The notes: generated from the sequence alone by a model not told the origin. A stretch of 64,000 nucleotides of DNA from Planctomycetota bacterium (GCA_965223265.1 OZ244999.1:8480001-8544000); one strand, 5' to 3'. Counted from the stretch's first letter, positions 45,800 to 58,742 are shown. Translations and numbers: made by a program.

Positions 45800-46579
45800 T
45801 CAGTCGGCCGGCGTCACGATGTAGCCACCGCTTCGATCGTCTCTCTCCAGGTGGAGGAGCTTTTCGCGTTGGGCTTCGTGGAGGAGATGTGAAAACGATC
45901 GAAAGCCGAAATACTGTTCGTTGAACTCTGGGTGCTTTCGCTTGATCGTTTGCTTCACCATCGAGCTCCAAATGATATCTCGGTCCTGTCGCACCAGCAC
46001 ACGCAGTGCGTCGAGAACGCGCTCGTAGGCCTGCCGCTCCTTTCCGGCGACACTCTGGAGCTTCTGTTTCACAACTGCCTGCGGCGAGTCGAGCACAATG
46101 TCGTCGTAATAGATGAATTCATCGCAGTTGTCGACGAGTAGATCGCTCGTTGAGTTTTTCACTCCGACACCGATGACGAACTTGTCATTCTCCTTGAGCT
46201 TCGAGACGAGCGGCGAAAAATCGCTATCGCCACTCGCTATGACAAAGCAGTTGATATGATCTTTGGCATAGCACAGGTCCATCGCATCGACGACCATGCG
46301 TATGTCGGCTGAATTCTTGCCGCTGTAACTCTTGCGAGGGATCTCGATCAGCTCGATTCCTTCTTCGTGGAATGAGCGCTTGTACCTGCCGTAGGTTTCC
46401 CAGTCAGCGTAGGCTTTCTTAACGACGATCTTGCCGATTTCTACGACGCGTTCGAGCAGCTTTCGAATGTCGAATTCTTTGTACTTCGCGTCGCGGACGC
46501 CCAGGGCGATGTTTTCGAAGTCGCAGAAGAACGCAATCCTTGCGTCCTCGGGGTCGAGTCCACCGGGAACATGAGCCAC
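45800..46579 (-). CDS. NYN domain protein (LabA/DUF88) with C-terminal OST-HTH/LOTUS domain
   Basis: FCDFENI, AYADW, KNSADIRMVVDAMD, SGDSDFSPL, CDEFIYY, FNEQYFGFRSFSHLL. Confidence 0.92.
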   Translation of the reverse strand: MAHVPGGLDPEDARIAFFCDFENIALGVRDAKYKEFDIRKLLERVVEIGKIVVKKAYADWETYGRYKRSFHEEGIELIEIPRKSYSGKNSADIRMVVDAMDLCYAKDHINCFVIASGDSDFSPLVSKLKENDKFVIGVGVKNSTSDLLVDNCDEFIYYDDIVLDSPQAVVKQKLQSVAGKERQAYERVLDALRVLVRQDRDIIWSSMVKQTIKRKHPEFNEQYFGFRSFSHLLHEAQREKLLHLERDDRSGGYIVTPAD

Positions 46580-46840: not shown

Positions 46841-48211
46841 TCACGCCGTTGCTGTCGTCATCTCGCGCAGCAGATGCGCCATCATCAGGATGCCCCGAAA
46901 GTAGTCCTGTAGTCGAAAGCGCTCGTTGGGCGCGTGAGCGCCGTCGTCCGGCAGGCCGAGCCCGATCAAGAGGCTATCAACGCCGAGCTCAGACTGAAAC
47001 GTGTTGACGACTGGAATCGATCCGCCTTCTCGAATGAACACCGGTTCACGGCCAAACGCGATGGCGAGCGCCCGCGATGCGGCTTGCACCGCCTTTCCTT
47101 CTCTCGGAACGAGCACGGGCCGTGCCCCGTGGTGATCGATCACCTCGACCTCGACTGAATCGGGCGCGACCTCTTTCAGAAAGTTCGTTACGAGTGCGGC
47201 GATCGCGGCGGGATCCTGATCAGGAACCAGACGCATAGAGAATTTGGCCCGCGCTTCACTTGGAATGACTGTTTTTGCCCCTTCGCCTGTGAATCCACTG
47301 ACAAGGCCGTTGACGTCGAACGTCGGTCGAGCCCAGCGACGTTCCAGGTTCGTGTACCCTTCCTCGCCGACACTCGACTTAAAGCCAAGCTCGCTTTGAA
47401 ATGCGTCTTCGTCGAAATCAAGAGCCGCAAGAGCGTCCCTCTCCCAAGCTTCGAGGTCACGGACATCGTCGTAAAATCCTGGGATGGCCACGCGACCGAA
47501 TGGACCCTGGCACGCCGCGATCATCCGCGCGAGCACGTTCGCCGCGTTCGGCACCGCACCACCATAGGATCCTGAATGCAGATCGGTTTTGGCGCCGCGC
47601 ACCACGAGTTCGAGGTATGCCAAGCCCTTCAGCCCGTATGTGATCGCGGGGACGTCGGGAGCAAACTGGCTTGAGTCAGCGATCAAGACAACGTCGGACT
47701 CGAGACGTTCTTTCTCAGAACGAATGAAAGCCGCCAGGTTCGGGCTACCAACCTCCTCTTCTCCTTCAACCAAGAATTTGACGTTGATCGGGAGCGCGCC
47801 GAAGACGTGTTGGGCCGCTTCAACACCCTTGACAAGAGCGAATAGCTGGCCCTTGTCATCCGTTGCGCCGCGCGCGACGACGTAGCCATCCTCCTGCGTC
47901 GGTTCGAACGGACCGTGTCGCCACTCGTCGAGCGGGTCCGGTGGTTGAACATCGTAGTGGCCGTAGACCAGGAGTGTCGGCTGGGCCGAGTCGACGAGCT
48001 TTTCGGCGTAAACGATTGGGTGTCCTGGAGTCGGGAAAACTTGAGAGGTTAGCCCCATACCCACAAACTTTCGATGCAACCAGTCGGCGCAGTCGCGCAC
48101 GGCTGTGGCTTGCGACGCGTCGGTGCTGACGCTCGGAATCTTCAAGATTTCAAAGAGTTCTTCGAGGGCTTTCTGGCGTCTCTCGTCGACGAATTCGGTC
48201 AGGTCTTTCAT
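46841..48211 (-). CDS. M20 family dipeptidase
   Basis: YGHYDVQP, ARGATDDKGQ, EGEEEVGS, DLHSG, GGSIP, HAPNE. Confidence 0.93.
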   Translation of the reverse strand: MKDLTEFVDERRQKALEELFEILKIPSVSTDASQATAVRDCADWLHRKFVGMGLTSQVFPTPGHPIVYAEKLVDSAQPTLLVYGHYDVQPPDPLDEWRHGPFEPTQEDGYVVARGATDDKGQLFALVKGVEAAQHVFGALPINVKFLVEGEEEVGSPNLAAFIRSEKERLESDVVLIADSSQFAPDVPAITYGLKGLAYLELVVRGAKTDLHSGSYGGAVPNAANVLARMIAACQGPFGRVAIPGFYDDVRDLEAWERDALAALDFDEDAFQSELGFKSSVGEEGYTNLERRWARPTFDVNGLVSGFTGEGAKTVIPSEARAKFSMRLVPDQDPAAIAALVTNFLKEVAPDSVEVEVIDHHGARPVLVPREGKAVQAASRALAIAFGREPVFIREGGSIPVVNTFQSELGVDSLLIGLGLPDDGAHAPNERFRLQDYFRGILMMAHLLREMTTATA

Positions 48212-48558
48212 CGGGCGATCCTTGAGCTTTGAGGTGCTTCGTGTAGCGCTAGTCGACGTCAGCACGGACAGGCCATCCGGGTCCGCGGCATTTTACCGTG
48301 GGGAATTCATGAAAGCCTACCATCAGCGCGCTTTAGGATCGCGCGAGGTCGCGCTTCAGTGTCGGCTGGTCCTTCCGACCGCCGGTCGCGTCTTCGATCG
48401 TGGAAGCGTTGGGTCAGGACGGCTGCCACACGGATCCACAGTAACAATTCGTACTCTTCTGCGTCAGGGAACATGTCGACCAGCCTGGTTGCGACTGGCT
48501 GGAAAAGCAGCACGTGCTCAATTATCCTGTGAGCGGTTTGCTTTCTGCAGGTTGCCGA

Positions 48559-51500
48559 ATGCCCGAACGGTTCGAGATTTTTGGTAGAGGAGAAACCGAG
48601 GGCGTCGAGGCGCTCTACCGGAACCACCGGGACGGTCGACCGAGCGCGGCCTTGATTGAGGATATCGTCCAGCAGCGCATTGGGACGCTCGAGCGGCTTC
48701 GCGCTATGCGTGCGGACGAAGCGAGTTTGGTCCTTTCTGAGGCGGTTTCGGGTCTCGAGCGCCGTGTCACGACGATTACCGATGGGACGGCCTCGCCGTT
48801 CGATGCGGAGATACTTCTCGCCCAGCAGCTGCGCTGGTGCTTGTGGCTTAGCGACTTGGTCACCGATCAGCTTGGCCGCGACCCCTTTGCGTACATCGAG
48901 GACGATATCGACTGGGTCGAACGTTCGACGCGCCGGCTTGGCGATTGGGACCGCGAGCTCCAGGGAGAGGCGAGTCAGCTCGCGGCGCAAGTCGACTTCT
49001 TGAAGGAACGCGTCACAGGTCGAAAGTGCTCTCGCTTTCTCGCACCGGTCGCGCCAGCAGTTGAATCGGAGCCGCCGCTCGAACGCGCCTTCAGGCTTTG
49101 GTACGCCGTCAGTGAATCGTTCACGCTCGAAATGCGTATTGCCAAGCTCGGCCGCGGCACCGGTGATCCGGCTGCCGAAGCGGGAACGTCGAAAGGCGAG
49201 GGGCAGAGCTCGCGGACAGTAGGATCGAGCGAGCTTCTGCGTCTTCAAGAACGGCGCGGTGAGCTGCGAAGCGAGCTGCAGCGGACGCTCTGCGATCTGC
49301 AACCAGCGGAGATCGCAGAGTTCTGTCGTCCATGTGCCAGCGAGCTTCTGGACCATTCCTCAGGGCTTCTTACTGAAACCGCCACGTCGCGGGCACGGCA
49401 CAGAATCGCCTCGCTACGCGCGCTACGCAGTCAGCTCGACTTTTTCCTCAAGATCACGACGCCTGAGCGGGCGACCGTGCTGAGTCAACTCGAGGGGGAG
49501 GGGTGCCGAGAGCTCGCACGAAAATTTCGACAGCTGGACCGGCTGCGTTCGAGGACGCTGAACGCTGAACGGGAGGAGGTCGCGGCACATCGGTTGCGAC
49601 GCTTCTTCGGAGCTTCACGGGTGAAGGTTTGGGAGAACTTCATCCTTGTGCTCGTCTGCGCGTTCCTCGCGCTCGTGATCGCGGACTGGTGGCTTTCCTC
49701 ACTCCTTGTTGATGACGACAAGACCGTAGGGATGCGAGTCGAGGATTCGCGTGGTGGGTTGCTACCCGCGGGTGTCGCCCAGGCCGAGGGGCGGGTGAAC
49801 TTGGGGACGGTCGCGGCTTCCCGAGAGTTCGTGGTAACAGAGGCGAGCGTCGATCAGAATCGGATCCGCAGGTGGATACGGTCGCTCCACATCGTCGACC
49901 TCGTCTTCTGCGTGATTTTTCAACTCGACTTTTTCATTCGCTGGGGTTTTGCCGGTTGGCGAGGGTGGTTCTTTCGTCGTCACTTTTTCTTCGAGAGCTT
50001 GCCAGCTCTTCCTTATGCGCTCCTGCTGCCGTATCTCCAAGGTGTGATCGTCTTTCGCCTGCAGCGTTTTGTGCGGCTTCTCCGTGTTTTTCGTGTGTTC
50101 GCGTTTTTCGTTCGTGGTGCCGATCAGGCAGTCGAGCGGTTTCGCCCTGTGATCGATCGCGACATCATTCTCTTCGAAACTGGTGAGACGCAGGAGTTCC
50201 CGGAGTCACCACTGAAAATTCGCTTGCTCGATCTCGGCGAGCGTTTTTCGAGGGCGGTTCGCAGCGTATATCGCGATCTTGGCTGGGCCGAAAGGCCTCG
50301 CGTGCTCTCACGGTGTGTTCAGGCGCTTGACGTGGAATCGCAGCTCGTCGGTGCTATGTCACTGCCCTATCGCCGCGATCTCATGCACTTTGCCAAGGAG
50401 GTACGGCTTGAAGTGCTGATTGGGCGGTGCCTCAATTGCGATGTTGGTCGCGCCTTGACCTATTTTGGACGTGAAGGTGCGCAGCGCATCGCGCAGTGGC
50501 TCCGTCGGTTGGACATCCCCATTTTTCGCCGGGCACCGTTTGTGCGCCGCTTGATGCCTGCCGCTCGTATTCCCGACCCGTCCGAGGCTGCGAGTGCGGC
50601 CGTGAAGGCGATGGGGCAGATTCTGCAAGAGTTTCTTGGGGTCATGCGGTTTTGGGGAGACATGGCTGGGATCACCACCGGGCCGCAGATTCTTGATCGC
50701 ATCGCGACCGCGCTCGTCATGGCGACGAAACGCCCCGCGGTTCGACTGTTTCTTCTCGCCAGCCTGTTTCTCTTCTTGGACCTACTCTCAGGGCTCGTCG
50801 GTGAGAATTCGTTCATCGGCGTTGCCTCGACGAAAGTGTTTCAGCTGTTGGGTCTGCCTCTCTACATCGTGGGTGGTCTCTGCCTCGTGTTGCTCTTCAT
50901 GGGTTTCTGGTTCAAGCGCATCGCTGGCGAGGCGCTTTCGGAGCATCTCCGGGTCGCAGATGCCCATTTTCTCACTTTGATCAAGCACTGGAAACTGCCG
51001 CGCTGCGAACGTGATCTGCGTCGCATGTACCGGAGTGTCCTGGCTCCAGAGTTTCATTTGCGCGGCATTTCCGGATTGGACGACGCTTCGTCTATCCGTT
51101 TTCTTGCGGCACCGGTCCGCTCCAAGTTGCTTCACAACTCAGGCCTGGCGGATACCTCCGTGGAACCGTGTCGGGAGTTTCACGACGAGAGGCAAGCGAT
51201 CGCTTTGCACTATGAGACTTACTTGGATAGCCCGGTTCTGCACCGCGAAGACAACGCCACGTCGATACAGCTCCTCGGCAACCTCGCGCTTCGAGATCTG
51301 CGCACCAATACGATCGGACTTTCACGTCGGCAGTTTCGCAAGCTCGAGCGGCTCAACTTGGAGCGGCAGAGCATCCTCTCCTTAGGACCTTACTTTTGGT
51401 TTCGGTTCATCACGGAGAGCCTGGCGATTGAGACGGCGAAGCTCGTCAGGGAGTACAACGCCTCATGCATAGCAATCAGTGACCTGCCGCACGCCACCGA

Positions 51501-52854
51501 GGGTGAGAAGGCGCGGTTTCAGGCTTTTCTCACTCGGCATCAGGAAGGGCGGGACGAAATCCATGTACGCCGCTCGGCGCGTTCGTCGGCGCGAACGGAG
51601 GAGTTCCTCACCGATGAGTTCTCGGCGCTGAACTTCCTGATGCCAGACGACGAGCGCGATCTCCGCATCAAAGAGCGTTTCGGGGACGACGTTTTTCGCG
51701 CATTGAAGGCGGATCGACGCGGCGTTGTCCGCGACATTTTCGGGACACGGCCATATCACATGCTGCCGCGCCACGAACGCGTCTTCAATCCTTACCGACT
51801 TTTTCACAAGTATCTTGGCGGGGCGAAGTTCTTCCTCCTGCCGCTGGTTTTCGTGCTTGGCGCCCTACGTTTGCTCTCGAAGGCCCTGCAGCAAGTCGTT
51901 TTCCTCGTGCGTGAAGTGCTCGGTCGGGAGAGGTTCCGTCGCAGTCAACGCAACCGATTCGCGAGTTTCGACGTCGCGGTGCGAAAGATCGATCGGATGC
52001 GCAAGCCGTTTTTCATGGAAGCGCTGAAGCTACGCGCCACGGTCGACATCGATTATCTCGGCCTGAACGTGCCGGGAGTGCCTGAACGCGACAGTCGCGT
52101 CACCTACGAGGACGATCTGAACTTCGTCACTGCCACCGAAGCTGAGCGACATCCTGTTGAGGAGGCGAGAAGGAACGCGGTGAGGGACCTTCGACGCTTG
52201 CGCGGTTTCTTTTCCCAGCGTGGCTGGACTCGCGACGGTTTTTCGGGCCTCTTCGAAGCGCTCGAGTTGCCAGAGTCGATGCGCGGTGACCGGACGTCAA
52301 TCCTGCGTGCCCTTGCGACTGCTTTCGTGACGGACCACGGGGGGCTGCGCCAGACGATCACTGCGCCTCAGATCGTTCGGGAATTCATCGACACAGCGCT
52401 CGCGGCACGAGAGTCATTCGGTAGTCGGGTCGAACACGCCTTCTTCAGTCTCTTGTTCTTTTTGCCAACGCGCCGCCGCCGCCGCCGATTTCTTCGCGAC
52501 TATCTGGAACACGCTACGGGTGGGCAGTCACTCGATCCAAAGCGTCGTCAGAAGCTTTGGAGAGCCTTGGCGGCGGCAGACCCGGACAAGGAAGCCGCTT
52601 TTGAATCCGTCGTCAGGGTAGCGCAAGAGAAGGCGCTTGGACGCGACGCCACGGTGGAAAGTTTTCGCCAAGTAGCGCACGACCACGGAGTTTGGACGCA
52701 GCGACTGATCACCGTGCGCACGATTCAAACGATCACCGTCCTCGACATCGAATGCTATCGCGACCTCATTTGGGTCCTTGGAGACTACGAGTCGGAGGTC
52801 CCGAAGCTGCGAGCCGATCATCGAGGCGTTCTGCCGGTGAGCGAGGGGCGCTGA
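48559..52854 (+). CDS. Large membrane protein with an Ion_trans S1-S4 (voltage-sensor-like) domain; function unknown
   Basis: S1 ENFILVLVCAFLALVIADW, S2 IVDLVFCVIFQLDFFIRW, S3 FFFESLPALPY, S4 FRLQRFVRLLRVFRVF; further TM segments; large helical soluble regions. Confidence 0.78.
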   Translation: MPERFEIFGRGETEGVEALYRNHRDGRPSAALIEDIVQQRIGTLERLRAMRADEASLVLSEAVSGLERRVTTITDGTASPFDAEILLAQQLRWCLWLSDLVTDQLGRDPFAYIEDDIDWVERSTRRLGDWDRELQGEASQLAAQVDFLKERVTGRKCSRFLAPVAPAVESEPPLERAFRLWYAVSESFTLEMRIAKLGRGTGDPAAEAGTSKGEGQSSRTVGSSELLRLQERRGELRSELQRTLCDLQPAEIAEFCRPCASELLDHSSGLLTETATSRARHRIASLRALRSQLDFFLKITTPERATVLSQLEGEGCRELARKFRQLDRLRSRTLNAEREEVAAHRLRRFFGASRVKVWENFILVLVCAFLALVIADWWLSSLLVDDDKTVGMRVEDSRGGLLPAGVAQAEGRVNLGTVAASREFVVTEASVDQNRIRRWIRSLHIVDLVFCVIFQLDFFIRWGFAGWRGWFFRRHFFFESLPALPYALLLPYLQGVIVFRLQRFVRLLRVFRVFAFFVRGADQAVERFRPVIDRDIILFETGETQEFPESPLKIRLLDLGERFSRAVRSVYRDLGWAERPRVLSRCVQALDVESQLVGAMSLPYRRDLMHFAKEVRLEVLIGRCLNCDVGRALTYFGREGAQRIAQWLRRLDIPIFRRAPFVRRLMPAARIPDPSEAASAAVKAMGQILQEFLGVMRFWGDMAGITTGPQILDRIATALVMATKRPAVRLFLLASLFLFLDLLSGLVGENSFIGVASTKVFQLLGLPLYIVGGLCLVLLFMGFWFKRIAGEALSEHLRVADAHFLTLIKHWKLPRCERDLRRMYRSVLAPEFHLRGISGLDDASSIRFLAAPVRSKLLHNSGLADTSVEPCREFHDERQAIALHYETYLDSPVLHREDNATSIQLLGNLALRDLRTNTIGLSRRQFRKLERLNLERQSILSLGPYFWFRFITESLAIETAKLVREYNASCIAISDLPHATEGEKARFQAFLTRHQEGRDEIHVRRSARSSARTEEFLTDEFSALNFLMPDDERDLRIKERFGDDVFRALKADRRGVVRDIFGTRPYHMLPRHERVFNPYRLFHKYLGGAKFFLLPLVFVLGALRLLSKALQQVVFLVREVLGRERFRRSQRNRFASFDVAVRKIDRMRKPFFMEALKLRATVDIDYLGLNVPGVPERDSRVTYEDDLNFVTATEAERHPVEEARRNAVRDLRRLRGFFSQRGWTRDGFSGLFEALELPESMRGDRTSILRALATAFVTDHGGLRQTITAPQIVREFIDTALAARESFGSRVEHAFFSLLFFLPTRRRRRRFLRDYLEHATGGQSLDPKRRQKLWRALAAADPDKEAAFESVVRVAQEKALGRDATVESFRQVAHDHGVWTQRLITVRTIQTITVLDIECYRDLIWVLGDYESEVPKLRADHRGVLPVSEGR

Positions 52855-52933: not shown

Positions 52934-53971
52934 TTACCTCTCTTTAAGATCTTCGCCTTTCTCTCCAAAATGTTTTTCCACAAGCAACCGAGCAAGATTC
53001 CTGTTTCCCTCGGCCTCCGTAGCGTTAGACGCCACTCTTGCAAGAGAGGAGCGAATCGAACTTCGAGTACCATCTTCTAACAGGTGGTTCAAATCGTTGA
53101 GAAGAGTTTCGATACTTTCGAGGGCATTGGCCCGAACATCCGCGTCCTGATCCAACAGGCTTTGTTTTGCAATCATGAGTGAGTCGAGTGACTGAATAGA
53201 GGACAACATAAAGAGAGCAAAGGCCCGGGTCGGGGCCGATTGAGCGCGAACCCCTTCCTTCAAGGCAGAGAGCGCCTCCGGGTTCCCGTTGTACGCAAAG
53301 CCAGACAACCCTCGTAGTCTTGCCCGCGCCGTTGCCAAGTCTGAGGTCTCCAAATCAAGAAGATCTTTTAGAATAGCTCCTAGACCGGAGCCTGTTTTGT
53401 TGCAGTGCAAAGCAAAAGCTTTTAATGCCCCGCCAGCCATGTCTCTATTCTCCTCGGACGAATCAGTTCTAAGGATTTTCAGCAGTCGAGGCGCACAGAA
53501 TAGAGCCGAACAGCCAGTAGAAGTAAGGAGACCGAGAAGGTGACGGCGAGTTTCTGCATCTCCCTCCTCTAGTAGATCCAGCACCGCCTGCCGATTGTCC
53601 GCTGCCAAACCGCATTTCTGAACGATTCGATCTAATTCATACCCACCACCGCCGGTCGTCGCCAGTATTTCTATTAACCGCGGAATTGCGGTTTCTTGCG
53701 ACGCAGGATCTCCCCTTCTTAAAGCATCGAGTGCGTGAACGAGCACGGATGTGTCAGGGCTCTCCAGGGCGAGCAGGACGACTCTATAAGCATGTGAGTT
53801 TGACTCGTATAAATCTGGAAGTCGCTTGGCGGCGGCGGCGCGAACGTTTCTGTTTTCGCTCTGGAGCTGTTGAGCGACGAGAACAACCAGGTAAACCTTG
53901 AAATACAGGGCAACAAAGATAACAACGACCAGAGCGGCAGACGAAACGACAAACAAAGTTCGCTTACTCAT
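52934..53971 (-). CDS. Membrane-anchored HEAT-repeat protein, AT-richer than its flanks
   Basis: N-terminal TM helix; VRAAAAKRL, TRAFALFML, DQDADVRANALESI; sampled 60-nt lines are 43-57% GC. Confidence 0.75.
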   Translation of the reverse strand: MSKRTLFVVSSAALVVVIFVALYFKVYLVVLVAQQLQSENRNVRAAAAKRLPDLYESNSHAYRVVLLALESPDTSVLVHALDALRRGDPASQETAIPRLIEILATTGGGGYELDRIVQKCGLAADNRQAVLDLLEEGDAETRRHLLGLLTSTGCSALFCAPRLLKILRTDSSEENRDMAGGALKAFALHCNKTGSGLGAILKDLLDLETSDLATARARLRGLSGFAYNGNPEALSALKEGVRAQSAPTRAFALFMLSSIQSLDSLMIAKQSLLDQDADVRANALESIETLLNDLNHLLEDGTRSSIRSSLARVASNATEAEGNRNLARLLVEKHFGEKGEDLKER

Positions 53972-54154
53972 TTGACTCGTCCTGTCCAACAATTCGATCG
54001 ATACGAAAAGCACTGCTGTGACGACGTCGACTTTCCTGGATGATCTCGAATCTCGAAGGAAAGTCGAGTGTTGCATCAGGTCGACTCTCGGGCAACGTCG
54101 ACCAGACGAAACGCCACTGTCGGTTGAGGATTGAGACGACGTTACTGTGCGCCG

Positions 54155-55426
54155 TCAACGTCCCGGTGCGGTGTCTTCCTTGGCGCCGGCCACGAGGCGC
54201 ACGCAGACCAGCTCGCTGTCTGAGCGCGCGAAAACGTCCTGGCCGGCGAACGCCGGATGGGCCCATGTGCGGCCAATGATGCTTGCCCGTCCGAGATCGA
54301 CGTAGCCTTGCGGTTGCACGCGGCCGAGGAGCAGCTCGCCGCTGGAATTCAGTGCCACGACGTGGCCGTCATCTCCGGCCCACACGATCGAAGCGTGGGG
54401 ATTTCGCTCTTTCGGGTTCACTTGATAGTCATCGCGCCATGCCACTTCGCCGTCTTGCCAGCGAACGGCGAGGAAGCCGCGCGCTTTGTCCAGCGTGAAG
54501 ACCCGCTCACCGTGTGCCAGCGGTGTCGCCATCAGGCAGCTCGGCACTCTGGCTTCCCAGACCAACTTGGCGCTGTCGGGTTGCAAGCGATAGACGCGAC
54601 TTCCGTCCCAATATCCCGAAAGGAATAGGTGTCCTTCGTGAACCAGAGGATTGGCGATCGCGACGTCGAAGTTGCTTGTCCTGAAGGGCGCGGTCCAGCG
54701 CACGACGCCGTCGGAGGGTCGCACGCCATGTGCCGCGTCCGCGGTCCAGATGATGATCTGCGTTTCGTCGCCGACGGTTGCGATGACCGGGCTGGCGTAG
54801 CCCGGGCGATCGTCGAGGGCGCGCCACCGTTCCTTCCCGCTGCGACGATCGAGCGCGATCAACGTACCACCCGGACGGGCGCCGAGTTGGAGGATGAGCA
54901 AGTCGCCATGGACAAGAGGTGACGCCGAGTGGCCCCACTGGGGTGTCTGGGCGCTGAGCTCTCGCGCCGCGTCGATCTGCCAGCGCGGTTCGCCTTTGCG
55001 GCGATCGAATGCGTGCACGTGACCAACGGCTCCGACCGTGTAGATCGTGTGCTTCGAGATGGTCGGCGTTGCTCGAGGGCCGCTGCCGTAGTCGAGGTCG
55101 CCGTAATCAGCGCTATAGCGAAACTCCCACAGCTTCGTCCCGTCGCGACGATCGACGACGAGGGCGCGCTCCGTACCATCGGTACCGCGATCCATGACCA
55201 CGACCTGATCCGCCTCGACCGCAACGCCTGCATAACCGCCACCAACCTCGACACGCCAGCGCTCTTTAACGTTCTCCGGCGACAGGCGCGGCGGCAGCTG
55301 CACGTCGCGCCACCTAGCTTCCGCTCCTGGCCCTAAAAAGCGGGGCCAGTCCGTTGCTGCTAATTGCGCCGCCGACATGAGGGCAGCGAATGCTGTCAGG
55401 GTCCAAGTCGCTCTCGTCATGTTCAT
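54155..55426 (-). CDS. PQQ-like beta-propeller (BamB-like) secreted protein
   Basis: Signal peptide, DWPRFLGP, GPRATP, repeated G..W motifs, GYASP, TWAHPA. Confidence 0.88.
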   Translation of the reverse strand: MNMTRATWTLTAFAALMSAAQLAATDWPRFLGPGAEARWRDVQLPPRLSPENVKERWRVEVGGGYAGVAVEADQVVVMDRGTDGTERALVVDRRDGTKLWEFRYSADYGDLDYGSGPRATPTISKHTIYTVGAVGHVHAFDRRKGEPRWQIDAARELSAQTPQWGHSASPLVHGDLLILQLGARPGGTLIALDRRSGKERWRALDDRPGYASPVIATVGDETQIIIWTADAAHGVRPSDGVVRWTAPFRTSNFDVAIANPLVHEGHLFLSGYWDGSRVYRLQPDSAKLVWEARVPSCLMATPLAHGERVFTLDKARGFLAVRWQDGEVAWRDDYQVNPKERNPHASIVWAGDDGHVVALNSSGELLLGRVQPQGYVDLGRASIIGRTWAHPAFAGQDVFARSDSELVCVRLVAGAKEDTAPGR

Positions 55427-55505
55427 GGAAGGATAGGAGGCTGCCCTAGCGACATCGTCTGCTCGCCGCAGCGAGCGCCGGCGCCGGGGGGTAAGGACTT
55501 TCGTG

Positions 55506-55991
55506 CTAGAGGAAACCTCCGACACATTCACCGACGGCGAGCAGTGCCTCCGTCTCGGTCGCCGAAAACTCGTGGGGAGTCGGTTTGGCAACGCCGAGAG
55601 TGCCTCGAAGGACACCGTCCACAAGCAGCGGGAGTGCAATGCTTCCTTCTACCTTCGTCTCTTTGGCGGCCGGGCGCGCGACCCCGGATTCGTCCGTCTG
55701 TAGGTTGCAAGTCTGCACCGGTTCGAGCCGTGCCGCCGCGAGACCCGCCATTCCCTTACCGCGTGGAATGCACTGCACCTGGCCGAGGATCGACGCCGGG
55801 ATTCCGCGCTGGGCGACGAGCTCCAGTTCGTCGCTGTCCGAGTGGTAGCGGTGTAGAGTGCCCACGGTGCAGTCAAACGCCTGGAGAATCTTTTCTAGCG
55901 TCGTCTGATAAGTGGTCGCCGACGGTTCTCCGGACAATAGGAGATGGAGCTCGGAGAGGAGTTGAGGGCGGGGGGCGTTGGCACTCGGCAT
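55506..55991 (-). CDS. Stand-alone GAF domain protein
   Basis: LELVAQRGIP, IPRGKGMAGLAA, SIALPLL..LRGTLGVA. Confidence 0.85.
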   Translation of the reverse strand: MPSANAPRPQLLSELHLLLSGEPSATTYQTTLEKILQAFDCTVGTLHRYHSDSDELELVAQRGIPASILGQVQCIPRGKGMAGLAAARLEPVQTCNLQTDESGVARPAAKETKVEGSIALPLLVDGVLRGTLGVAKPTPHEFSATETEALLAVGECVGGFL

Positions 55992-56170: not shown

Positions 56171-56800
56171 CTATTTCCGGGTGCGTCGACGACGCCGCGC
56201 CAGCGCGAGGGCTCCGGCGCCAAGTCCAAGCAGCGCAACGGTGCCCGGCTCCGGCACAGAACCGATGCCTCCACCGCCACCGCCGGCGTAAACACCCAAG
56301 CCGTAGATCATGAACTCATCACCGTAGCTCGGCGCGGTGATTTTGACCATGCTGGTCGGCTCGATGTCGACCGTCGCCAACCAAGTCCCGTCCTCATGGT
56401 AGGTTGGGACTTTTGCGCTGTGCAGCTCACCGTTCACTTCGATCTGAAAATCATCGTTCCAGTCCCCGAAAGTGAACGTGATGCTCTTGATTTCCACGAC
56501 TTCGGAGAAGCTGAACTCGACGGTCTCAGCGCCGCTCCAGCCGTCGGTCAGCATGCCACCGATGCCCAGTCCGCCGAACGACTGGACCACGTTGGCCGCG
56601 GCCCCATTCTCCCAGCCACTGACAGTGACCGCCAGGCCACCCGGCTGGGAAGAGAATCTAGCTTCGTGACCTAGATTGTTGACGTCCCAAAAGTGGGGCG
56701 AGGCGAAATTGAAGTGAAACTCATCTGCCTGAAGGCTTTGCATGCCAAAAAGGCAGACTCCGACAAAGAAGCCCGGTACGGCTTTTCGCAAAAAACTCAT
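56171..56800 (-). CDS. PEP-CTERM sorting domain protein
   Basis: Signal peptide MSFLRK..LQA; C-terminus VPEPGTVALLGLGAGALALARRRRRTRK. Confidence 0.92.
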   Translation of the reverse strand: MSFLRKAVPGFFVGVCLFGMQSLQADEFHFNFASPHFWDVNNLGHEARFSSQPGGLAVTVSGWENGAAANVVQSFGGLGIGGMLTDGWSGAETVEFSFSEVVEIKSITFTFGDWNDDFQIEVNGELHSAKVPTYHEDGTWLATVDIEPTSMVKITAPSYGDEFMIYGLGVYAGGGGGGIGSVPEPGTVALLGLGAGALALARRRRRTRK

Positions 56801-56873
56801 CCTTACGCGCCTTTCGTTCCTCGTGAGGTGTAAACGTTGACGAGCTTTAATTTTGCGGGGCCGAAAAGCCAGT

Positions 56874-56889
56874 TGCAACAAAAATGCCG
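56874..56889 (-). promoter_or_regulatory. Sigma-54 (-24/-12) promoter
   Basis: CGGCAT-TTTTG-TTGCA, exact GG-N10-GC spacing, ~75 nt upstream of the PEP-CTERM start. Confidence 0.65.
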
Positions 56890-57108
56890 AGTCAATACGG
56901 TACTGTTTCACAGAGACGTTCCTCGATGTAGTCCGGATCGTGTTCCCGTTTCCCTCTTCACAGAACTTTCCACTTCCCTAACAGTGTGTTGGAAAGCACA
57001 CCAAAATATCCCAAGCAAACTTTATGCCGCGGCTGCGTTTCGCCCTCAAGCGGTTAGGTAGCCGTGAGTTATGCGGTGGGGCTTGGTTATCGTCTCTCTT
57101 TAGGTTTG

Positions 57109-57205: not shown

Positions 57206-57314
57206 CGTCGTTCACGTCCACCGAACGTTGAGCCACTCTTTTTCGCGTCAGGACCTGGAGAACCTCGGGCTGCGTGATGTAGAGTCCTCTCGATCTTGGA
57301 CTCGAGGTGCACTC

Positions 57315-58742
57315 ATGAGACGTTCGCGCGGTTTGCTTGTTTGTCTTGTCGGAGTCCATTGCGGCCTCCTGCTTTTTGGCTGTCGCTCTCGACCAACCGT
57401 TCCGGACCTCGGCGAAATCTACAACCGAGCCGCCCAATACCACGGGGAAGGACGCAATCCGGTCATCGTGATCCCCGGCATTTTGGGGTCGCGGCTCGTC
57501 AAGGGCGACGACGGCTCGGCGGTCTGGGGTCTCTTCGGCGGAGACTACGCGGATCCGTCGACCGCCGACGGAGCCGGGTTGATCGCGGTGCCGATGCGCG
57601 AGGGCGCGGCGCTGCACGAGCTTACCGACGACGTTGTTCCCGATGGCGTTCTCGACAGCCTCGAGGTGAACGTGTTTGGACTGCCGATCGAGTTCCAAGC
57701 GTACATGCAGATTCTGGGTACGCTCGGCGTCGGCGGCTACCGCGATGAGCAGTTTGGCCTGGCGGGTGCGATCGACTATGGCGATGACCACTTCACGTGC
57801 TTTCAGTTCGGCTACGATTGGCGCCGCGACAATGCGGAGAACGCCAAGCGTTTGCATGAGTTCATTCTCGAGAAACGTGCCTACATCGCCGCGGAGCTGC
57901 GCAAGCGCGGCCTGCCACCGCGGGAGATCAAGTTCGACCTCATCGCGCATTCGATGGGGGGGCTGATCTCGCGCTACTATCTGCGCTACGGCGCTGCGGA
58001 CCTGCCCACCGACGGCTCGACGCCGGAAGTGACGTGGGCGGGAGCGGAGAACGTGGAGCGAGCCATTCTTGTTGGCACCCCGAACGCCGGATCGATCTAC
58101 GCGTTCGACCAGCTCGTGCACGGAATTTCATTCTCTCGACTTTTCCCGAAGTACTCCGCCGCCCTTCTTGGCACCATGCCCTCGATCTACCAGCTCATGC
58201 CACGACCACGCCATGGCGCGTTCGTCCAGCGCGAGACTGGGCAGGCCATAGAAGACATCTTCGACGCCTCCACATGGCAGCAGATGAAGTGGGGCTTGGC
58301 CTCGTTTCGCCAGGACGAAACGTTGGAGCTTTTGCTTCCAGATGTTCCTGACGCGGCAGCCCGGCGCCGTATCGCGCTAGATCACCAGCGCAAGTGTCTC
58401 GATCGAGCTCGTCGATTTGCCGCCGCCCTCGACCTCCCTGCGGCGCCGCCGGACGGACTCAGACTTTATCTTATCGCAGGCGACTCCATGATGACGGGTG
58501 CCGTGGCGGCGATCAGTCGACACGGAGCCGTGGAGATCGTCGAGACCGCCCCCGGTGATGGGACAGTGCTGCGCTCCAGTGCGCTCATGGACGAACGCGT
58601 CGGTTCTGAGTGGAGCCCGCACGTTCGCTCGCCTGTGGACTGGCGCCAAGCGACGTTTCTTTTCACGGATCACTTAGGTCTGACGAGTGATCCTGCCTTC
58701 ACGGACAACGTTCTCTACATCCTTCTGGAAGACCCGCGGTAA
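57315..58742 (+). CDS. LCAT-like lipase/acyltransferase lipoprotein (alpha/beta hydrolase)
   Basis: LLFG|C lipobox, VIPGILGSRL, YDWRRD, nucleophile elbow AHSMGG, GTPNAGS, GDGTV, DH. Confidence 0.88.
   Translation: MRRSRGLLVCLVGVHCGLLLFGCRSRPTVPDLGEIYNRAAQYHGEGRNPVIVIPGILGSRLVKGDDGSAVWGLFGGDYADPSTADGAGLIAVPMREGAALHELTDDVVPDGVLDSLEVNVFGLPIEFQAYMQILGTLGVGGYRDEQFGLAGAIDYGDDHFTCFQFGYDWRRDNAENAKRLHEFILEKRAYIAAELRKRGLPPREIKFDLIAHSMGGLISRYYLRYGAADLPTDGSTPEVTWAGAENVERAILVGTPNAGSIYAFDQLVHGISFSRLFPKYSAALLGTMPSIYQLMPRPRHGAFVQRETGQAIEDIFDASTWQQMKWGLASFRQDETLELLLPDVPDAAARRRIALDHQRKCLDRARRFAAALDLPAAPPDGLRLYLIAGDSMMTGAVAAISRHGAVEIVETAPGDGTVLRSSALMDERVGSEWSPHVRSPVDWRQATFLFTDHLGLTSDPAFTDNVLYILLEDPR

Follow-up and report, generated by a model that had tools for sequence, protein, structure and literature searches.

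Does a bacterium possess a voltage sensor that is not part of a conventional ion channel? The question is raised by a single gene on the plus strand (positions 48559-52854) of a 64,000-nucleotide stretch of DNA from a Planctomycetota bacterium (GCA_965223265.1, OZ244999.1:8480001-8544000), the whole of which we call the window. The original prediction, made from the sequence of the window, had described the product as a protein with a voltage-sensor-like domain and no apparent pore. We translated the predicted open reading frame (ORF) and found it free of internal stops over 1431 codons followed by a stop codon (1431 amino acids). Sequence comparison and structure prediction agree that residues ~355-519 of this protein are a genuine S1-S4 voltage-sensor domain (VSD), and that the pore arrangement of a channel, in which S5, a filter and S6 follow S4 via a short linker, is absent. 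From this combination of sequence and model evidence we lean slightly towards a membrane-potential sensor, in which S4 would drive a large cytoplasmic helical assembly and the output would be conformational.

We counted the conservation of sensor residues across 127 diverse relatives with 24-50% identity to the query and modelled the fold twice with AlphaFold. Model 1 covers residues 232-1431 (1200 residues; predicted local distance difference test, pLDDT, 85.1; predicted TM-score, pTM, 0.79), and model 2 covers residues 340-830 (491 residues; 53-row alignment; pLDDT 83.3; pTM 0.62). The segments of the sensor region are:

49621..49692, plus strand: S1, residues 355-378, acidic at both ends (E359, E/D in 120/127; D376, E/D in 112/127)
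49693..49878, plus strand: S1-S2 loop, residues 379-440, of low model confidence (pLDDT <50)
49879..49950, plus strand: S2, residues 441-464, with D447, C451, F454, D457 and R461
49972..50037, plus strand: S3, residues 472-493, with R474, E479, P482 and P485
50044..50115, plus strand: S4, residues 496-519, with R500, R503, R506, R509 and R512 at every third position and, in addition, R519
50116..50160, plus strand: cytoplasmic continuation of S4, residues 520-534, helical, with the family motif R-G-x-D-R-x-V-x-R

All the sensor motifs that had been predicted were found at the expected codons of the translated ORF. S2 reads D447-LV-F450-C451-VI-F454-QL-D457-F458-FI-R461, S3 reads E479-S-L-P482-A-L-P485-Y, and S4 reads R500-LQ-R503-FV-R506-LL-R509-VF-R512 and then R519, with R500 and R512 encoded at 50056 and 50092, respectively. 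S2 combines an F-x-x-[DE]-x-x-x-[RK] arrangement of the charge-transfer-centre type with an outer acidic residue seven positions earlier, a pattern that we take to resemble the gating-charge transfer centre of Shaker-type sensors (presumably mapping to Shaker F290/E293/D316). These residues are strongly conserved in the family: D447 is present in 126 of the 127 sequences, C451 in 122 and R/K461 in 125, position 457 is acidic in all 127, and position 454 is F in 86 and L in 41. The same holds for S3 (R474 in 118, D/E479 in 116, P482 in 114 and P485 in 126). The S4 arginines, whose conservation across homologues had been proposed as a check, are kept in 86-125 of the 127 sequences from R500 to R512 (R500 106, R503 86, R506 108, R509 108, R512 125), and R519 in 116, while the positions between them vary among hydrophobic residues. 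Across the family, S4 carries a median of 9 basic residues, with every-third-position runs of up to 8, and in most relatives it is longer than in the query. Its cytoplasmic extension is also conserved (D522 126/127, R523 102, V525 104), and the S4 helix reaches ~residue 527 in model 1.

Database comparisons point to the same assignment. With hmmscan, Ion_trans (PF00520) was the sole Pfam family matched by the protein (residues 426-516, E 2e-4, 21.1 bits with a cut-off of 25), and the match spans only profile positions 20-111 of 241; when the genome was searched in six frames, this stretch scored 28.1 bits, above the cut-off of 25. A precomputed PF00520 match is present in some relatives and absent from most. 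Searched against the PDB, the single sequence found KvAP VSD chains at E 5e-4, and a family profile built from 50 full-length relatives found KvAP at E 5.5e-6, with the VSDs of Nav1.5, Kv4.2 and NaChBac next in rank; every profile match listed at E <0.003 is a VSD-bearing K+ or Na+ channel. Consistent with the predicted folding of S1-S4 as a VSD, model 2 superposes by Foldseek on the nuclear magnetic resonance (NMR) structure of the KvAP VSD (2kyh) with a target-normalised TM-score of 0.66, a root-mean-square deviation (rmsd) of 5.7 Å and a probability of 0.90. This was the only Foldseek row of model 2 with a meaningful TM-score, and the PDB search returned no matches at E ≤0.001.

Two further features of the sensor were seen. 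The S1-S2 loop, with ~60 residues here against a family median of 10, holds a lineage-specific insert. In addition, the sole conserved cysteines of the family are C451 in S2 (49909-49911, 122/127) and C775 in the second helix of the hairpin described below (50881-50883, 115/127); C451 sits one turn below the outer acidic residue of S2.

We then compared what follows S4 with the pore domain of a channel. As predicted, S4 leads into ~200 soluble residues instead of S5-P-S6: residues 520-725 contain no hydrophobic span, and only then does a transmembrane (TM) hairpin appear:

50734..50802, plus strand: TM5, residues 726-748, with P726 and R729 at the cytoplasmic start, and G734
50830..50910, plus strand: TM6, residues 758-784, with G765, P767, G772, C775, G782 and W784

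In most members TM5 and TM6 are joined by 0-15 unconserved residues; a few members carry low-complexity inserts there. A loop this short and unconserved cannot accommodate a pore helix and a filter. Across the family, no conserved polar or charged residue was found inside the membrane part of TM5 or TM6. Superposition of model 2 with full six-helix channels (CNG, KCNQ2 and NavAb) failed, with TM-scores of 0.10-0.24 and rmsd values of 18-26 Å. Together with the end of the Ion_trans match at position 111 of 241, these results bear out the claim that the protein lacks a P-loop pore.

The same genome encodes a canonical K+ channel elsewhere, a 288-residue 6TM protein with a TVGYG filter and a Cys-rich C-terminal tail (L082:1411-2277; C1:6001389-6002255), which matches Ion_trans at 121.8 bits over profile positions 2-231. 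The presence of this channel argues that the VSD gene is not the ordinary voltage-gated channel of the cell. The family profile aligned weakly with this channel, over S1-S3 alone, at a probability of 41%. A third Ion_trans match in the genome covers a pore only (26.2 bits, C1:6903377-6903619).

The rest of the protein is large and predominantly helical:

48559..49614, plus strand: N-terminal helical, coiled-coil-like cytoplasmic domain, residues 1-352, the least conserved part
50161..50652, plus strand: middle cytoplasmic domain, residues 535-698, mostly helical with a small strand pair in the models
50653..50700, plus strand: top conserved motif of the family, residues 699-714, W-G-D-x-x-G-I-T-T-G-P-Q-I-L-D-R, directly before TM5
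50911..51828, plus strand: conserved all-helical cytoplasmic domain, residues 785-1090, by conservation and model 1
51829..51921, plus strand: hydrophobic, then amphipathic basic helix, residues 1091-1121, with P1095 invariant
51922..52851, plus strand: conserved all-helical C-terminal domain, residues 1122-1431, with R1142, R1146 and D1163 invariant

The original prediction had noted a later hydrophobic segment, and such a segment is indeed present at ~1091-1121. Across the family, however, one of its faces bears 4.3 Lys/Arg on average, its hydrophobic moment is 0.56-0.60 and its mean hydrophobicity ~0.1, so that by its sequence it is probably an interfacial or half-inserted helix rather than a membrane-spanning one. 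We also considered it as a seventh TM helix that would place the C-terminal 310 residues in the periplasm, and rejected this on the basis of the arginine face and the high hydrophobic moment. If the segment is read as a surface helix, the likely topology has six TM helices, and the two large flanks lie on the cytoplasmic side.

Model 1 is confident and helical throughout these cytoplasmic parts, including residues 232-352 of the N-terminal domain, for which the family profile also matches vimentin and designed coiled coils weakly (profile positions 18-325). Conservation peaks outside the VSD, namely in the motif 699-714, where D701 is invariant (127/127), in the region after TM6 and in several cytoplasmic blocks. 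The invariant or near-invariant cytoplasmic residues are D701, D713, D898, N908, Y966, N967, D1052, N1077, K1143, R1142, R1146, D1163, Y1166 and D1186; no conserved His or Ser, and no conserved cytoplasmic Cys, was seen across the family alignment. The AlphaFold models, soluble domains included, were run through Foldseek, as had been suggested, and no PDB neighbour emerged for the cytoplasmic part: model 1 gave no matches at E ≤0.001, the best being ABCC/SUR chains at a TM-score of 0.07, which is noise. Apart from the weak coiled-coil matches, the family profile found no PDB sequence match outside the VSD. Searched in the ESM Atlas, the whole protein returned only weak Ion_trans-type clusters (0.76-0.82, under the trust level), and residues 530-1431 returned no usable match.

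The protein belongs, by sequence, to an uncharacterised family of ~1200-1500 residues found almost entirely in Planctomycetota. A word-indexed search returned 54 relatives of 820-1480 residues, the closest of which cover 93-99% of the query at 37-47% identity; those with names are Planctomycetota (Thermoguttaceae, Pirellulales). The relatives are colinear over their full length, with the N-terminal helical domain, VSD, juxtamembrane motif W-x-x-D-L-x-G-x-x-T-G-P-Q, TM hairpin and conserved C-terminal 650 residues in the same order. An exhaustive search with the 902 C-terminal residues yielded 404 representative clusters (50% identity), of which 338 had E ≤1e-10. The near-full-length members (1150-1650 residues) among the 150 listed all join the VSD to the C-terminal module, the C-terminal match lying behind 340-1080 N-terminal residues, mostly 400-630. 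Only 7 shorter proteins carrying the module were found, mostly on 1-8 kb contigs, and this search for shorter proteins gave no clear case of a stand-alone copy.

A search of one genome for each species gave 179 stretches that code for a relative. When the phylum was sampled evenly, the family was present in 41 of 201 genomes (24 of the 129 good-quality ones), usually in one copy, and its presence is consistent within certain bacterial families of that sample. Two relatives carry the labels of other phyla, namely L058 from an Ectothiorhodospiraceae metagenome-assembled genome (MAG) and P0080, a partial protein from a Thermoanaerobaculia MAG. Matches with in-frame stops or split matches occur in G053, G074, G010, G121, G047 and G167, the last being split into three parts that contain several stops; they may reflect pseudogenes or faulty assembly.

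How would such a protein work? In the sensor reading that we favour, the arginine-rich S4 would cross the charge-transfer centre of S2 and S3 upon a change of membrane potential. S4 is predicted to continue as one helix into the cytoplasm via the conserved R519-G-x-D522-R-x-V-x-R, which would act as the coupling element. The movement could thereby be passed to a cytoplasmic assembly of ~900 residues, which the TM5-TM6 hairpin and the basic amphipathic helix would anchor to the membrane. The output would be a conformational change that either signals to partner proteins or serves an activity yet to be recognised, with no ion flow through a selectivity filter. The movement of S4, the coupling path, the placement of the last two thirds of the protein in the cytoplasm and the kind of output are all proposed here by inference.

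Several observations weigh against this picture. The KvAP superposition has a Foldseek E-value of 3.1, and no Foldseek E-value was significant for model 2. Contacts that would link the S4 extension with the hairpin and the cytoplasmic domains are putative, and it is sequence and predicted structure that support the functional reading. The ~900-residue module matched nothing in Pfam, NCBIfam, PADLOC, the PDB by sequence, the PDB by Foldseek or the ESM Atlas (0 families each for NCBIfam and PADLOC), so that 'effector' is a place-holder term here. The occurrence of the family in only 41 of 201 genomes indicates an accessory function, and no partner gene is conserved throughout the family among the 80 loci and in the 63-gene tree described below. 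Moreover, TM6 keeps Gly or Pro at G765, P767, G772 and G782, which would fit the gating helix in an oligomeric pore as well.

This last point bears on the alternative that had been offered beside the sensor, a non-canonical channel. Both readings stand, and the sequence cannot choose between them. In such a channel or transporter, which we consider unlikely, the TM5-TM6 hairpins of several subunits would form the pore, or ions or protons would cross the VSD itself as in Hv1 or in omega currents. Two-helix channels with short loops and a pore without a P-loop do exist (MCU, CorA, MscL), and the 6TM layout, S1-S4 plus two TM helices, resembles one channel subunit. The TM6 glycines and proline are joined by a conserved W-[LF]-[RK]-R at the cytoplasmic end, features that presumably recall a hinge and bundle crossing, and the N-terminal coiled-coil-like region could drive oligomerisation. 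Yet an unconserved TM5-TM6 loop of 0-15 residues cannot seat a filter, neither helix holds a conserved polar or charged residue, and 200 residues, not a short S4-S5 linker, separate S4 from TM5. The proton-channel variant meets a further difficulty in that RxWRxxR is present in 1 of the 127 sequences, and perhaps also in the placement of the conserved acidic residues of S1 towards the two ends of that helix. The cytoplasmic parts, moreover, are the most conserved of the protein. A complex prediction with four copies of residues 695-806 (the hairpin and its flanks) gave a score of 0.00 with an uncertain fold, which favours neither reading.

Two more readings seem improbable to us. The four-helix bundle could be a fossil VSD, kept only as an anchor or structural element in a role unrelated to voltage; in TRP or RyR channels S1-S4 is usually regarded as structural, 7 of the 127 members have only 3-5 basic S4 residues, and the query falls under the Pfam gathering cut-off in hmmscan (21.1 versus 25 bits). 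What speaks against it is that the gating charges, the acidic residues of S1, S2 and S3 and the S2 aromatic are kept at 24-50% identity while the hydrophobic positions between the arginines vary freely, a pattern that, we infer, would be hard to retain without selection for charge movement. Most members even exceed the S4 charge of Kv and Nav sensors, with a median of 9 basic residues against the four to eight charges given in a 2025 review. The protein could equally little, in our estimate, be a voltage-regulated enzyme of new fold that resembles a voltage-sensing phosphatase, with a cytoplasmic active site acting on a membrane lipid or envelope precursor. The scattered invariant or near-invariant Asp, Asn, Tyr, Lys and Arg of the cytoplasmic part would suit an active site, basic juxtamembrane stretches and the amphipathic helix would hold the domain at the lipid surface, and in one clade the gene adjoins that of a polytopic membrane protein, with a WbsX-type glycosyltransferase nearby in two loci. 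However, no enzyme family or fold was recognised, the domain is all-helical, no His, Ser or Cys is conserved outside the membrane, and the link to these neighbours is restricted to one clade.

By sequence and fold the nearest known systems are channel VSDs, and by logic they are the voltage-sensing phosphatases, Hv1 and TMEM266. With the channel VSDs (KvAP 1ors/2kyh, NaChBac, Kv4.2 and Nav1.5) the family shares the four-helix bundle, the outer and inner acidic residues and aromatic of S2, the acidic residue and prolines of S3, and the S4 arginines at every third position. It differs from them in the near-invariant S2 cysteine (C451, 122/127) and, in most relatives, the longer S4 with its median of 9 basic residues. 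In sharp contrast to voltage-gated channels, there is no S4-S5 linker, S5-P-loop-S6 or filter here, and 200 soluble residues, a plain hairpin and ~650 cytoplasmic residues stand in their place. In HCN channels S4 likewise carries about nine basic residues and reaches into the cytoplasm, and HCN1 was matched weakly by the family profile (E 0.03-0.17), but the P-loop pore and cyclic-nucleotide-binding domain of HCN are both absent here.

The pore-less sensors resemble the family in concept. Voltage-sensing phosphatases (Ci-VSP, TPTE), which are eukaryotic, likewise pair a pore-less VSD with an S4 that runs on into a cytoplasmic module, which basic residues tether to the membrane; the module here is all-helical, however, with no PTEN-like domain by Pfam or NCBIfam and no conserved CX5R. 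Hv1, too, lacks a P-loop pore beside its VSD and shares a coiled-coil-like region with a possible role in oligomerisation, but it is less than one fifth of the size of the present protein, which has two extra TM helices. The query lacks the RxWRxxR signature of the Hv1 S4, and in S1, where Hv1 has its selectivity Asp, the conserved acidic residues are those at the two helix ends (E359, D376). TMEM266 (HVRP1), a vertebrate protein, consists of a VSD and a cytoplasmic tail and has no known conductance. The cytoplasmic parts of the present family are far larger and conserved, and the family is bacterial; no similarity to TMEM266 outside the VSD was found, and none was looked for.

To our knowledge, voltage sensors that lack a pore (Hv1, voltage-sensing phosphatases, TMEM266) are regarded as inventions of eukaryotes. 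Our literature search, which did not extend to most subscription journals or to supplements, found no paper on a pore-less VSD protein from a prokaryote. According to a 2023 review, database searches show every prokaryotic VSD to come with a K+, Na+ or Ca2+ pore domain, and Hv channels to be missing from prokaryotes; the parts available of two later voltage-sensor reviews mention no bacterial exception. That a VSD can be coupled to a partner different from a P-loop pore is a known concept, and our results suggest a new bacterial case with an uncharacterised effector. They also suggest that bacteria may read membrane voltage without a conventional channel. If this is true, the use of the VSD as a portable module would extend back to bacteria, and the family would offer a molecular entry point for studying how bacteria sense their membrane potential. 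A new voltage-controlled effector fold would be a further gain, useful for mechanism and for the engineering of voltage-controlled proteins.

Could the genomic context identify a partner for the favoured sensor? Within the host genome (9.18 Mb, one contig) the VSD gene is single-copy. It and the genes around it in the window are:

45800-46579, minus strand: NYN ribonuclease with OST-HTH domain, not conserved beside distant relatives
46841-48265, minus strand: M20 peptidase gene, upstream of and divergent from the VSD gene
48559..52854, plus strand: whole VSD gene, monocistronic, divergent from the M20 peptidase gene and convergent with the HEAT-repeat gene
52934-54076, minus strand: HEAT-repeat gene, downstream of and convergent with the VSD gene
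54155-55639, minus strand: PQQ/BamB-like beta-propeller, not conserved beside distant relatives
56171-56911, minus strand: PEP-CTERM protein, not conserved beside distant relatives
57228-58742, plus strand: LCAT-like lipase or acyltransferase, not conserved beside distant relatives

The gene-neighbourhood analysis that had been called for was run on 80 loci and on a tree of 63 full-length genes. The clusters of neighbouring ORFs are crude and partly contaminated by antisense frames, and all counts from them are approximate. Beside the relatives, the M20 gene recurs in 5 of the 80 loci, NYN in 2, PPIase in 1 and the LCAT-like gene in 1, whereas the HEAT, PQQ and PEP-CTERM genes recur in 0. Since the neighbours in the window are common only to the closest relatives, we rejected a functional link to the M20 peptidase (5/80) or to the HEAT-repeat gene (0/80). 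In the tree the query falls in a clade of 9 (support 100), in which the divergent M20 gene is present in 6.

A separate clade of 18 (support 100; loci L032-L080) has a distinct, operon-like order (e.g. L070:5567-7200, L050:11021-12364), in which a gene for an extracytoplasmic function (ECF) sigma factor is followed by a single-TM ORF, the VSD gene and the gene of a polytopic membrane protein. In 19 of the 80 loci the ECF gene is found upstream of the VSD gene and shares its strand, and the two scanned contain Sigma70_r2/r4 by Pfam. The single-TM ORF, anti-sigma-like with one predicted TM segment, is directly upstream of the VSD gene in ~21 loci, and the polytopic protein gene starts at the VSD stop codon or within a few bases of it in ~20. 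No Pfam family was found for these two clade-specific neighbours even at E ≤1. A WbsX-type glycosyltransferase gene lies near the VSD gene in two loci of this clade (L037, L070). The remaining 36 of the 63 tree rows have none of the M20, ECF, single-TM and polytopic neighbours. Given that each set of neighbours is confined to a single clade, the gene context serves only as a lead.

Taking up that lead, we tentatively propose, at somewhat below an even chance, a larger picture in which the family is the first prokaryotic pore-free VSD, a dedicated transducer that would convert membrane potential, the electrical component of the proton-motive force, directly into a conformational signal in the cytoplasm via a new 900-residue helical effector. 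One clade would then be wired to the ECF sigma factor and the anti-sigma-like protein, allowing voltage-responsive expression without ion flux.

As for the limits of the gene itself, the start at ATG 48559 agrees with those of the homologues, M1 being retained in at least 90% of the alignment rows; an alternative upstream start, GTG 48514, would add 15 residues. An antisense ORF of 349 residues (48307-49356, minus strand) overlaps the start of the VSD gene. It has no match in Pfam and is most likely a chance open frame of G+C-rich DNA.

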